This document shows, in pieces, positions 16,278 through 28,987 of a DNA stretch of 32,000 nucleotides. Made by a program: the position numbers and the translations under genes. The stretch is from assembly GCA_048886185.1 (NCBI GenBank), contig JBHLKY010000003.1, forward strand, positions 30,001-62,000, given 5' to 3'. Every line of letters starts with the position of its first letter. Within the stretch, counting starts at the first letter, position 1. Source of the stretch: Candidatus Hermodarchaeota archaeon (lineage in GTDB: Archaea > Asgardarchaeota > Heimdallarchaeia > Hodarchaeales > Hodarchaeaceae). The notes under the pieces are model-generated. The model did not search any database. It saw only the letters and a program-made list of their open reading frames with translations, and was not told where the DNA came from.

Positions 16278-16449
16278 ACAAGGCACCCAAAAATTCAACA
16301 GCAGGATGCTTTAATTCTCTTTATGTAATTTCTATCCTTTAAGAAAACTATTCCAATCAAATTTTTTCTTTCTAATCTTAGCTCATACTTGTTTCTGTAC
16401 AAAGAAACTGAGATTGTTTCAATTTTATTTGTCAGAAGAAAAGGAAGTA

Positions 16450-16608
16450 TGCCGAGGGTGCGATTTGAACGCACGACAACTGGATCTCCATCATGCAGAT
16501 AAATCCATGACTTCAGTCCAGCGCTGACGGGATAATAGACCAATAAAGGATGGTGATTCTCCCGGGTTTCTCATTTACTTATGAAAGCAAACTCTAAGCT
16601 ACCTCGGC
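16450..16608 (-). tRNA. tRNA-Phe(GAA), three introns: 15/16 (16567-16593, 27 nt), 22/23 (16526-16558, 33 nt), 37/38 (16486-16510, 25 nt)
   Basis: Removing them gives a 74-nt cloverleaf GCCGAGGTAGCTTAGCCCGGGAGAGCGCTGGACTGAAGATCCAGTTGTCGTGCGTTCAAATCGCACCCTCGGCA; each junction folds as a BHB or relaxed BHB. Confidence 0.88.
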
Positions 16609-16693
16609 AGTAGCAAATACGAAGTAAGTCAGTCAATACTAGCAAGTGATTAAAAATTTTTACTTTTATGGGAGTATAAAACTAAGAGTATTC

Positions 16694-16937: not shown

Positions 16938-17177
16938 CTAAGGTGGAGAAATAAGTATTACATTATCTCCTCTAAGGATAATATTTCCTAATGTTTCAGT
17001 TACTGACTCCTGATCATCTTCTTCTTGAGAAGGATAAATCATTTCCGCGTCTTCAAGGTATAAGTTTAGATGCGGATCGTAACTTCGTAAGATCCCACGG
17101 ATTTCACGATGACCGCGTACTTTAAGGATTACTTTTTTATTGAGGGCGGCTGTTAATACATCTAACGGTCTACTCAT
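16938..17177 (-). CDS. Sm/Lsm-family RNA-binding protein (SmAP)
   Basis: RPLDVL, GILRSYDPHLNLYL, IILRGDNVILISP; upstream of rpl37e as is usual in archaea. Confidence 0.95.
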   Translation of the reverse strand: MSRPLDVLTAALNKKVILKVRGHREIRGILRSYDPHLNLYLEDAEMIYPSQEEDDQESVTETLGNIILRGDNVILISPP

Positions 17178-17221
17178 ATTTAATCACTTTGAGATAAGGG
17201 GAGTTTTTATACGAAAAGGAA

Positions 17222-17361
17222 TGCTCCGACCGGGATTTTCCGACTACAAACGATCTGTTTGTTTCCTTTGAACCCGGGTCCTTCCGCGTGGATTCAATAT
17301 CGAATTCAGCCAGATTCGGGGCGAAAGCCCGGAATGATGGGCCGAGCTACACTATCGGAGC
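17222..17361 (-). tRNA. tRNA-Glu(TTC), two non-canonical introns: about 43/44 (17282-17315, 34 nt) and 59/60 (17236-17266, 31 nt)
   Basis: Acceptor GCTCCGA/TCGGAGC; T-arm CCGGG-TTCAAA|T-CCCGG. The 75-nt mature form has a C27.A43 mismatch, so the first junction is less certain. Confidence 0.82.
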
Positions 17362-17560
17362 AGATCCTCATGAAATACAGCCCTTTATCGGCAATACAAC
17401 CCCCCTTGCTTCAAATTAAAAAGGTTTGTTAGCAAAAAGATAAACTATGAAACAAGAGCTAAAAGAGTTAAGCAAGATTTTAGGTTTTGTAGAATAGCAA
17501 ATCAAAAACATATTAAATCTGATTAAACCTTGTATCCCTTAACTAGGAACTGAAAAAGAG

Positions 17561-17914
17561 GTGTTCATTGATCTGGTATCGTCCCATCGTCGAAAAAGAC
17601 GGAAAAGGTCTCAGGAGAAACAAGAAATTCGGTTTCTTACTCAAGAAGCGATAACATTTTTTACAGAGGAGAGTCTGAAGATTCGCTTAACTGATCCATT
17701 ACATTCTCAAGAGTTATTCCGTTCAGCTCGAAAAATCGGGAAAAGAAGCCGGTTTCATATTCCACGACAATATCGTTTTTTGTTTTGTCGGTCATGCTGT
17801 TCACCTTTAAGCATCAAAACTGCTAAAATTCGCTTAAATAGTAAAAAACAACAAATTCAATATTTATGTTTGAATTGTAAGAAGGTACACCGGTTTGGAT
17901 ATTTAAAAAAGTAA
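17561..17914 (+). CDS. rnp4: Ribonuclease P protein component 4 (Rpp21)
   Basis: ARKIGKRSRFHIPRQYRFLFCRSC..KIRL..CLNCKKVHRFGY zinc ribbon. Confidence 0.88.
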   Translation: MFIDLVSSHRRKRRKRSQEKQEIRFLTQEAITFFTEESLKIRLTDPLHSQELFRSARKIGKRSRFHIPRQYRFLFCRSCCSPLSIKTAKIRLNSKKQQIQYLCLNCKKVHRFGYLKK

Positions 17915-17931
17915 AATTAGAAGGAATAGGT

Positions 17932-18258
17932 ATGCATGTAACAATTTACACCACATTTGATGATTTAGATGAAGCAAAAAAGTTTTCACGCCTCTTACTA
18001 GAGAGAAAACTTGCAGCTTGTGTGAATTTGATTCAGGGGGTTCATTCGATTTATCGGTGGAAAGGAGAAATTGAAGAAGCAACAGAAGTAATTCTATGGG
18101 GTAAAACTCAAGATTTTTTAGTTGAAAAAATCCAATCCATGATCCAAGAGTCTCATTCCTACAGTTTACCTGCTTTTGTGGTTTATCCAATTCAGACAGG
18201 AAGTAAAGCATATTTAAAATGGATAAGTGATGAAACACAACTAGCTAAACATCAATAG
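17932..18258 (+). CDS. cutA: Divalent-cation tolerance protein CutA
   Basis: LLERKLAACVN, SIYRWKGEIE, HSYSLP motifs. Confidence 0.93.
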   Translation: MHVTIYTTFDDLDEAKKFSRLLLERKLAACVNLIQGVHSIYRWKGEIEEATEVILWGKTQDFLVEKIQSMIQESHSYSLPAFVVYPIQTGSKAYLKWISDETQLAKHQ

Positions 18259-19279
18259 AAACCTTAAATCGAGTATCAAGCTTCTCTGTGGTAATAACAA
18301 CTCCTAATAATTCTTCTATCAGCTTGATATTAGTTTTGGTATGGTTGGATAAATATGGGGTGTAAAAAACACTCGATGTTGAAGCTGTTGCTATAATAGG
18401 TAGAATTTGATCTGCTAAAAACGGATCAATAGTACTTTGACTATTAAGAGTTGTAATATAACGTTCAAAAGCTTTTTTACCCACTGTTTCTGCAGATAGC
18501 TTACGTTCACCTATAAAATCCCCACCAATCACATTATTTTCGGCTTTTGAGAAGACTAAAACTCCTGAACCAGGATTATCTGCTTCAACAGATTCCATTA
18601 CCACTTCGGAATCTATAGACTGTTTTTGCAGGTTTGTGACAATTGTGTTTGCTTGTCTTTCTGCAACTCGCGCTCTTTGAAGATGTTTTGTTTCGAAGGA
18701 TAGAACATTTGCGATTTTTGGCTTTTTAAATACTTCAAGATTCAATCCTTTAAAAGAAGAAGGAGAGTGAATTGTAGCTAAAACTTTTGCTCCTCCCTTA
18801 GGAAAAAACCCATGGCGAAGAATGTTAATCTCAAGATTGTAATTCAATTGACGAAGGATTTCCCAAGTGACATGATTAACATAGGGAATAGTAGGAGCCC
18901 ATTTTCCAAAAGTTGCCCCACCTCGAATCTGTACCTTAAGAGAATGATTCTTGACTCCAAGAATAGCCACCTGAAGAGACTGCAAAATCAATCCAATACT
19001 ACCAGCTGTTGTAACAGAAATCTTCAAATCTGAATTCCAAGAGTTAGCTGGGGTGAAGAAAACTGTTCCTGATCCAATATGATCCCCTTCTAATTCACCA
19101 CCACAAAAATCAGCTAATGCACGAAGTCCCACAAGATGTTGTGTTTGGAGTCCAGGGTTTGGGCGATTTTTGCGGATATCAACAATTTTGACGGGTTCTT
19201 GCATCACAAGAGCAAAGGAGGTCACTAAGCGAAGAATAGATCCTCCCCCTTCCCCTAAACTTCCATCATAAACACGCAA
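18245..19279 (-). CDS. rtcA: RNA 3'-terminal phosphate cyclase
   Basis: DGSLGEGGGSILR, RPNPGLQTQHL, RHGFFPKGG, ADQIL and catalytic HTKTN motif. TTG at 19279 matches the usual N-terminus; the track start 19369 is also possible. Confidence 0.92.
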   Translation of the reverse strand: MRVYDGSLGEGGGSILRLVTSFALVMQEPVKIVDIRKNRPNPGLQTQHLVGLRALADFCGGELEGDHIGSGTVFFTPANSWNSDLKISVTTAGSIGLILQSLQVAILGVKNHSLKVQIRGGATFGKWAPTIPYVNHVTWEILRQLNYNLEINILRHGFFPKGGAKVLATIHSPSSFKGLNLEVFKKPKIANVLSFETKHLQRARVAERQANTIVTNLQKQSIDSEVVMESVEADNPGSGVLVFSKAENNVIGGDFIGERKLSAETVGKKAFERYITTLNSQSTIDPFLADQILPIIATASTSSVFYTPYLSNHTKTNIKLIEELLGVVITTEKLDTRFKVSIDV

Positions 19280-19375
19280 ATGGAGACCCCAAACAAATTC
19301 AGCATGCTGATCAAGGCGACAACGAGGGAGATTATAAGGATTACGGCTTTTCCTATCCTTATACAGCAAAAAGAG

Positions 19376-24059: not shown

Positions 24060-24222
24060 GCGGGGGTAGCCAAGCTAGGTCAAAGGCGGCATTCATTGGG
24101 CTAGATGATAGCTTAGTATATCATATCATGTCGCGCCGTCCAAAGGCGCTGGACTTAAGATCGCTTTTTGATAAGCAATCCAGTCATATAGATGTACGTG
24201 GGTTCAAATCCCATCCCCCGCA
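24060..24222 (+). tRNA. tRNA-Leu(TAA), two introns: 21/22 (24084-24143, 60 nt) and 37/38 (24160-24177, 18 nt)
   Basis: Acceptor GCGGGGG/CCCCCGC and long variable arm; 85 nt after splicing. Anticodon BHB CUUA/UAAG is perfect; D-loop BHB GGUC/GUCC has outer helix GGCG/CGCC. Confidence 0.88.
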
Positions 24223-28766: not shown

Positions 28767-28987
28767 GCTGGGGTGGCTTAAATGGTAATAACAATATTAT
28801 CATGGCGATGCCTGGTATAATCATACTGTCTATAGTCAGAATGCCGATAGCGCGGGACTCATAATCTGAGATGAATACTCATAACTTTCCAAGGGCAAGA
28901 ATCGCGCTTTCAGACGAGACATCCCGAAGTCGGGGGTTCAAAATAAGGTAAATTGCGATTTACTTTTTGAAAATCCCCTCCCCAGCA
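28767..28987 (+). tRNA. tRNA-Met(CAT), elongator-like, four introns: 14/15 (28781-28809), 22/23 (28819-28848), 37/38 (28864-28920), 59/60 (28943-28973)
   Basis: Removal gives a 74-nt cloverleaf GCTGGGGTGGCTTAGCCTGGTATAGCGCGGGACTCATAATCCCGAAGTCGGGGGTTCAAATCCCCTCCCCAGCA; all four junctions fold as BHB-type motifs. Confidence 0.87.

Follow-up and report, generated by a model that had tools for sequence, protein, structure and literature searches.

A predicted tRNA-Phe(GAA) gene with three introns and an 8-nt D-loop micro-exon in a Hodarchaeales-like Asgard archaeon

Introduction

In three complete Asgard genomes, introns interrupt 92-95% of the tRNA genes, and more than half carry several introns (PMC11291895). 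Up to five intervening sequences per gene are known from published Asgard genes, and insertions in the D-arm are systematically missed by annotators (PMC11291895; 10.64898/2026.10.13.758758), as they also were in the gene described here. The worked example in the preprint 10.64898/2026.10.13.758758 is itself a tRNA-Phe(GAA) with three intervening sequences, one of which lies in the D-arm. For several Heimdallarchaeia lineages, the same preprint gives fewer than one insert per gene, in a count that covers only genes detected by tRNAscan-SE. Multi-intron Asgard tRNA genes with D-arm introns overlooked by annotators are thus already published (PMC11291895; 10.64898/2026.10.13.758758), and since the phenomenon is published, the gain from a further tRNA-Phe locus is incremental.

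In the Thermoproteales, which belong to a different phylum from this Asgard archaeon, tRNA genes likewise carry up to three motif-bounded introns, with relaxed hBH and HBh' motifs and at non-canonical positions (Sugahara et al., 2007, 2008, as far as they are summarized in PMC4033280 and PMC4090602). In the same two accounts, these introns are likewise tied to a broad-specificity (alpha-beta)2 endonuclease. As far as these accounts go, Thermoproteales introns form sequence families common to several tRNA genes, which was taken as transposition, whereas the introns described here are without a paralogue in their genome; some Thermoproteales introns are also nested with an obligatory order of removal, unlike those described here. 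Cyanidioschyzon merolae, a eukaryotic nuclear system with a Sen-type endonuclease and without direct relationship to this locus, likewise has introns in the D-loop and D-stem, up to three per gene, with motifs that fold independently, and their processing order has been studied by RT-PCR (PMC3728597).

The locus under study lies in a 32,000-nt stretch of DNA (hereafter the window, about 36% G+C) from a 4.84-Mb draft genome of 75 contigs that is 96% complete. It resembles the published Asgard cases in carrying several bulge-helix-bulge introns in one gene, many of them non-canonical, in the two EndA paralogues encoded by this genome as by most published Asgard genomes, and in intron copies that are not common to different tRNA genes (PMC11291895; 10.64898/2026.10.13.758758). 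It differs from them in its lineage, a Heimdallarchaeia/Hodarchaeales-like genus, and in having two D-arm introns that flank an 8-nt exon. In contrast to the tRNAscan-SE-detected genes of the preprint census (10.64898/2026.10.13.758758), it is wholly missed by ARAGORN and the Rfam tRNA model. The locus is read here, with a probability of about 93%, as a functional and apparently the only tRNA-Phe(GAA) gene of this archaeon, the transcript of which would follow the splicing pathway proposed below.

Structure of the gene and its spliced product

The tRNA-Phe gene occupies window positions 16608-16450 on the minus strand and consists of four exons (15, 8, 15, and 36 nt) separated by three introns (27, 33, and 25 nt) at tRNA positions 15/16, 22/23, and 37/38. 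The 159-nt locus opens with an acceptor strand; at its other end, a T-arm precedes the complementary acceptor strand and a final A. In-silico joining of the exons yields a 74-nt cloverleaf that ARAGORN calls tRNA-Phe(GAA). The first-pass annotation had proposed a three-intron tRNA-Phe(GAA) gene from the sequence alone, and its exon and intron coordinates agree with those of the reanalysis, as does the spliced product. Once the inserts are removed, the cloverleaf is canonical and has the universal nucleotides U8, A14, G18, G19, A21, U33, G53, U54, U55, C56, A58, and C61, as expected for archaeal EndA-spliced introns. G15 with C48, and also G20, G37, and A73, were likewise read directly from the spliced sequence. 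G20 and A73, together with the anticodon GAA, are identity elements of tRNA-Phe, and the spliced sequence thus combines all of these with G37. The four exons are colinear on one strand within the 159 nt, and the gene is thus neither split nor permuted.

Exon 1 (16594-16608, minus strand, as for all parts of the gene) covers tRNA positions 1-15, including the acceptor 5' strand, U8, A9, the D-stem 5' strand GCUU, A14, and G15. It is followed by intron 1 (16567-16593), which consists of one nucleotide, an 8-bp hairpin, GAGA, which pairs with the D-stem strand GCUU, and AA. Exon 2 is the 8-nt micro-exon CCCGGGAG (16559-16566), corresponding to positions 16, 17, 17a, and 18-22, and supplies the D-loop with G18, G19, G20, and A21, as well as G22. 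Intron 2 (16526-16558) carries at its 3' side the CCCG that pairs with exon CGGG (17a-20). Exon 3 (16511-16525) comprises positions 23-37, with the remainder of the D-stem, G26, the 5' strand of the anticodon stem, and the loop nucleotides C32, U33, G34, A35, A36, and G37. Intron 3 (16486-16510) lies at the canonical position 37/38. Exon 4 (16450-16485) comprises positions 38-73, with the 3' strand of the anticodon stem, the variable loop, the T-arm, the acceptor 3' strand, and the discriminator A73; it reads to A73, and CCA is not encoded at the 3' end.

An A/T-rich box, AAAAATTTTTAATCAC (16646-16661, minus strand), is located 38-53 nt before the mature 5' end; it is near-identical in 10 orthologous loci, and a related box is found in most others. 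Its position and composition suggest that it is likely an archaeal BRE/TATA promoter, from which a precursor of about 180 nt would be transcribed. Downstream, a T-rich 3' trailer containing CCTTTTCTTCT (16431-16449, minus strand) was read directly and is likely to act as a termination signal.

The gene lies beside genes for an LSM (Sm-like) protein, an RNase P Rpr2/Rpp21-like subunit, and an RNA 3'-terminal phosphate cyclase (window 16938-19369). The match to the Rpr2/Rpp21-like subunit falls just below the Pfam cut-off, and the RNA 3'-phosphate cyclase gene (18245-19369) is 1.6 kb from the tRNA-Phe gene.

Detection and uniqueness

The unspliced gene was not detected by ARAGORN or by the Rfam tRNA model, the latter applied to a 461-nt slice with E-values up to 10; a gene with two D-arm introns is beyond the reach of either. 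The gene is thus hidden from standard annotation. Across the whole genome, ARAGORN called 31 tRNA genes, several of which are doubtful (three 'Pyl', His-atg, and Tyr-ata), and no gene for Phe, Cys, Trp, or Thr was among the calls; the Rfam model gave 28 matches at E up to 1, of which 23 reach or exceed the family gathering score. So few calls, with Phe, Cys, Trp, and Thr missing, indicate that a large part of the tRNA set of this genome is probably hidden by non-canonical introns.

Whether the genome holds another tRNA-Phe had been raised as a check on the gene. A scan for a GAA anticodon arm, either uninterrupted or interrupted at 37/38, followed by a T-arm returned the present gene as the sole locus with a paired T-stem, and no other tRNA-Phe(GAA) with such an anticodon arm was found in the 96%-complete genome.

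Elsewhere in the window, at 24061-24221 on the plus strand, ARAGORN calls a tRNA-Lys with a 71-nt intron, and the Rfam model gives no match. By eye, this sequence resembles a class II tRNA with a UAA anticodon loop, probably tRNA-Leu, with at least two inserts. Inspection of the minus strand at window positions 28767-28987 revealed no tRNA-like sequence.

Bulge-helix-bulge motifs

The geometry scored at each junction was a 5' bulge made of the two terminal nucleotides of the exon plus the first of the intron, a 3' bulge made of the two terminal nucleotides of the intron plus the first of the following exon, and a central helix formed by pairing between the four nucleotides preceding each bulge. 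All three junctions show the 3-nt bulges, the 4-bp exon-intron helix, and at least one flanking helix, in hBHBh', hBH, or HBh' form. At 15/16, the central helix GCUU/GAGA has three of four pairs and is flanked by the 8-bp intron hairpin (h'), without an exon-exon helix. The 8-bp helix had been noticed at first pass, and its place in the motif is that of the intron-internal flanking helix h'. At 22/23, the central helix CGGG/CCCG is perfect (4/4 pairs), as initially proposed, with the bulges AG/A and UC/A (the slash marking the junction), a 2-bp inner helix (h'), and one outer pair, C17-G24. At 37/38, the central helix CUGA/AUGG again has three of four pairs, the outer helix (h) is the 6-bp anticodon stem, and the inner helix (h') has 4 bp. 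Introns 1 and 3, each with one central mismatch (G-A and A-A, respectively), belong to the relaxed class in this genome.

At exactly the predicted positions, all three junctions have at least 3/4 central pairs plus a flanking helix, a level that only 5% of all possible intron placements in the precursor reach by chance; the permissiveness of this class was likewise pointed out in the preprint (10.64898/2026.10.13.758758). Four of four central pairs with a flank are reached by 0.8% of all possible placements. The strict shapes of motifs 2 and 3 are thermodynamically disfavoured, with non-strict folds better by about 8 kcal/mol.

A C/D-box or other guide function of the introns was considered and rejected: the introns are too short, and the conserved GAUGG of intron 3 is the strand that pairs with C32-A35.

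Splicing enzymes and order of intron removal

The two EndA paralogues of this genome, encoded at 47 kb and 80 kb on contig C8, are 206 and 212 aa long, both with an N-terminal domain and a catalytic C-terminal domain. The nearest solved chains to the first are 3p1z_B, 3ajv_B, and 2cv8_A, which we take to be crenarchaeal catalytic alpha subunits. The second is nearest to beta-type or structural units, namely the N-terminal part of 5x89_A, 3iey_B (NEQ261), and the N-terminal part of 4fz2_A. The pair thus appears alpha-like and beta-like, which fits an endonuclease of the (alpha-beta)2 type. EndA of this type has been linked to relaxed motifs and non-canonical introns (PMC4090602; PMC4033280; PMC5829648). 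The genome also encodes the ligase RtcB, and the enzymes for the proposed pathway, an EndA predicted from sequence to be of (alpha-beta)2 type and RtcB, are both present.

In the precursor, the D-arm would be unable to form, and two neighbouring exon-intron hairpin modules would stand in its place; the anticodon arm would be lengthened by the third module. Each module would display a bulge-helix-bulge with two 3-nt bulges and a 4-bp helix between them, half exon and half intron. The heteromeric (alpha-beta)2 EndA would cut within each bulge, and RtcB would ligate the exons.

The first-pass annotation had held that the two D-arm motifs share nucleotides and that the splicing order is probably constrained as a result. 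The motifs turn out to be separate: exon positions 10-16 belong to the 15/16 motif and positions 17-24 to the 22/23 motif, with C17 alone separating the two. All three motifs co-occur in the minimum-energy fold of the full precursor. When each strict motif was forced in all seven combinations of retained introns and compared with the unconstrained ensemble, the cost of forming it came to 0.9-1.1 (motif 1), 7.7-7.9 (motif 2), and 8.65-8.67 kcal/mol (motif 3), whichever introns were retained. The introns are thus not nested, every motif being available in the full precursor at a cost that stays unchanged in partially spliced states. Since the motifs are un-nested and would fold independently, structure should impose no fixed order of removal.

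A different constraint may come from the micro-exon. Before ligation it would be held only by its pairing to intron 2, so that one D-arm intron would probably have to be cleaved and ligated before the other is cut. Cutting at all four D-arm sites ahead of any ligation would leave the 8-nt exon attached by only 4-5 pairs to an excised intron, and the exon would probably be lost.

An obligatory order arising from interference between the two D-arm motifs, with intron 1 removed first or the reverse, in a gene otherwise as described, is an unlikely alternative to this scheme. With only C17 between the motifs, two endonuclease complexes may not fit together, and after removal of intron 2 the restored D-stem strand GAGC could compete with GAGA of intron 1 for GCUU. 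In C. merolae, the order of processing follows motif stability even though the motifs fold independently (PMC3728597), and in the present precursor the strict motifs of the isolated modules 1, 2, and 3 have unequal energies (-5.5, -0.7, and -6.5 kcal/mol). Against interference speak the separate exon positions of the two motifs and their joint formation in the minimum-energy fold, the constancy of each formation cost over the seven partially spliced states, and the lack of nesting of the kind reported from some archaea (PMC3728597). Under the preferred scheme of independent motifs with one D-arm intron processed at a time, a kinetic order of splicing is possible.

Conservation and covariation among relatives

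When 40 related genomes were searched at the DNA level, the locus turned up in 19 of 21 congeners, and the full gene was parsed in 18 congeneric genomes, including one (G006) from a later search. The flanks are constant in the congeners, with genes for the RNase P Rpr2 subunit, the LSM protein, and an amino-acid kinase, and the tRNA-Phe orthologue sits between the LSM and amino-acid-kinase genes in all 18 genomes. The gene order Rpr2-LSM-tRNA-Phe-kinase is kept across the genus.

In-silico splicing of every orthologue leads to a near-identical tRNA. The exons are near-invariant across the 18 orthologues and the introns variable: the micro-exon differs in a single orthologue, at position 16, with varying introns on both of its sides, and exon 3 is invariant save for one compensated stem change. 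The 36-mer of exon 4 recurs unchanged in seven public records of Asgard archaea (Hodarchaeota, Heimdallarchaeota or Promethearchaeota archaeon). Exons 1 and 4 covary in the acceptor stem, positions 4-6 and 67-69 reading GAG/CUC, GAU/AUC, UUG/CAA, UAG/CUA, or GCG/CGC. Within the introns, exon-pairing nucleotides show little or no variation, and the remainder of each intron varies.

On the alignment, 92% of the motif cells are paired, versus 32-40% when the partners are slid by 1-3 columns, part of this excess being expected since the structure was taken from one of the aligned sequences. Nine pairs have changed on both sides, versus 3.9 in shuffles, and four of the nine fall in the 8-bp hairpin of intron 1, in which four of the eight pairs show compensatory double changes and 96% of the cells are paired. 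The motif geometry is kept at every junction of every orthologue. The central helix of intron 2 has 4/4 pairs in 18/18 orthologues. The central mismatch of intron 1 (G10 opposite A) becomes G-C or G-U, giving 4/4 pairs, in 8 of 16 orthologues, and that of intron 3 becomes A-U in 6 of 18, likewise giving 4/4 (UCAG or UUGG).

These patterns make it very improbable that the locus is a pseudogene in decay or a tRNA-like mosaic arisen by chance, with the working tRNA-Phe in an unassembled part of the genome. The draft state of the assembly, with 75 contigs at 96% completeness, leaves room for such a gene, and the present gene is unseen by ARAGORN and Rfam. However, the exons have stayed near-invariant in 18 species while introns and flanks diverged, compensatory changes occur in the tRNA stems as well as in the intron helices, the intron nucleotides that form the motifs are all conserved, and a second tRNA-Phe was not found in the genome.

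Intron-free alleles and the placement of the junctions

By sequence alone, some junctions can slide without any change in the mature sequence, the second between 22/23 and 23/24 and the third among 37/38, 36/37, and 35/36. ARAGORN accepts hundreds of single-deletion products as tRNA and is too permissive to rank parses of the D-arm, so intron-free alleles were used to place the junctions. For the 15/16 site, two congeners (G011 and G006) read GCTTAG followed directly by CCCGGGAG, a third (G016) reads GCTTAG and then ACCGGGAG, and a sister-family genome (G022) reads GCTCAG and then CCTGGGAG. For the 22/23 site, family-f3 genomes read GGGAG joined to AGCGC. For the 37/38 site, G006, G022, and several family-f3 genomes read CTGAAG joined to ATCC. 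All three predicted junctions thus exist as contiguous DNA in relatives, which is the strongest test of the parse and is independent of the motifs. Since the micro-exon is fused to exon 1 in relatives free of intron 1, it is an exon and not part of one long intron, and the claim of an 8-nt micro-exon made at first pass holds. A cloverleaf with a single D-loop intron, which had been set beforehand as the refutation of that claim, fails on the same three congeners and one sister-family genome.

The shifted junctions 23/24, 36/37, and 35/36 leave at most 2/4 central pairs, and the placements at 22/23 and 37/38 are settled by motif geometry together with relatives whose intron ends cannot slide. 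It is thus highly unlikely that a different parse is right, be it one long D-arm intron or shifted junctions, in spite of the slidable ends and of the many single-deletion products that ARAGORN accepts: a single long intron would remove G18 and G19 and conflicts with the fusion of the micro-exon to exon 1 in relatives, and the shifted junctions are impossible in relatives with differing intron ends. Equally little speaks for a protein gene in the 82-aa ORF at 16543-16295 on the minus strand. This ORF starts inside intron 2, and its first 31 codons are tRNA gene sequence. Its alignment to the three or four closest relatives, at about 85% DNA identity, spans the whole ORF, as that of a neutral spacer also would; it matched no Pfam family, and in more distant relatives only the part overlapping the tRNA gene is conserved. 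The ORF is most likely spurious, in line with the first-pass annotation, and the four-exon, three-intron parse is retained.

Possible intron turnover in the genus

The 22/23 intron is present in all genus members examined (19-33 nt) and in the sister-family genome (28 nt), and is absent in family f3. The 15/16 intron is present in 16 congeners and absent in three congeners and the outgroups, and the 37/38 intron is absent within the genus only in G006 and is also absent in the outgroups. An intron at 59/60 is found in seven congeners, five of which thus have four introns. In these five (G020, G018, G013, G002, and G004; L013:1502-1695, L014:1501-1695, and L015-L017:1451-1645), the fourth intron is 36 nt long and lies in the T-loop; its central helix, UUCA/UGAA, is perfect, and the T-stem serves as the outer helix. 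The 59/60 intron also occurs in G011, G006, and family-f3 genomes. The intron sets observed among close relatives include 22/23 with 59/60, 22/23 with 37/38, 22/23 only, 59/60 only, and none, as seen in L052 (G006), L018 (G016), L019 (G011), L020/L032 (G022), and L037-L058 (family f3). In G038, the tRNA-Phe gene is interrupted past the anticodon loop by an insert.

The three flanking proteins gave a tree (422 columns; 19 species, G012 not among them; without an outgroup locus) that leaves the deep branches unresolved and places G011 and G016 on long branches. The data would fit a 15/16 intron gained once within the genus. No paralogue of any of the three introns was found elsewhere in the genome, where only chance-level matches of 12-17 nt occur.

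In G012, the LSM gene is adjoined by a partial copy that holds just the 5'-terminal 130 nt of the tRNA-Phe gene, to position 43 (L062, contig C424:4500-7263; L063). Beyond it come an inserted methyltransferase gene and a second copy, which is inverted and reaches the end of the contig. A third tRNA-Phe copy also ends a contig. These copies could be due to rearrangement, to insertion at the tRNA gene, or to strain mixing in the assembly.

Implications

Without this gene, the genome would seem to have no phenylalanine tRNA, and the locus offers a concrete example of an essential gene that is hidden from standard annotation and overlapped by a spurious ORF. Its local value lies in the series of intron presence and absence in congeners and in the 8-nt exon as a test substrate. 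Placed between two motifs, this exon makes the precursor a demanding natural substrate for the coordination of EndA and RtcB.

A wider reading is put forward tentatively, with the balance leaning slightly against it: the genus may represent another lineage in which tRNA genes are heavily interrupted, some of them invisible to ARAGORN and Rfam, the tRNA-Phe locus may record recent intron turnover, and the 8-nt exon may force strictly alternating cleavage and ligation in place of concerted excision. The lineage is among the closest archaeal relatives of eukaryotes, and the series of filled and empty single-intron sites in close species is the kind of material that the preprint asks for to study intron arrival (10.64898/2026.10.13.758758). 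If the wider reading is true, the preserved empty sites would make the origin of tRNA introns directly approachable.
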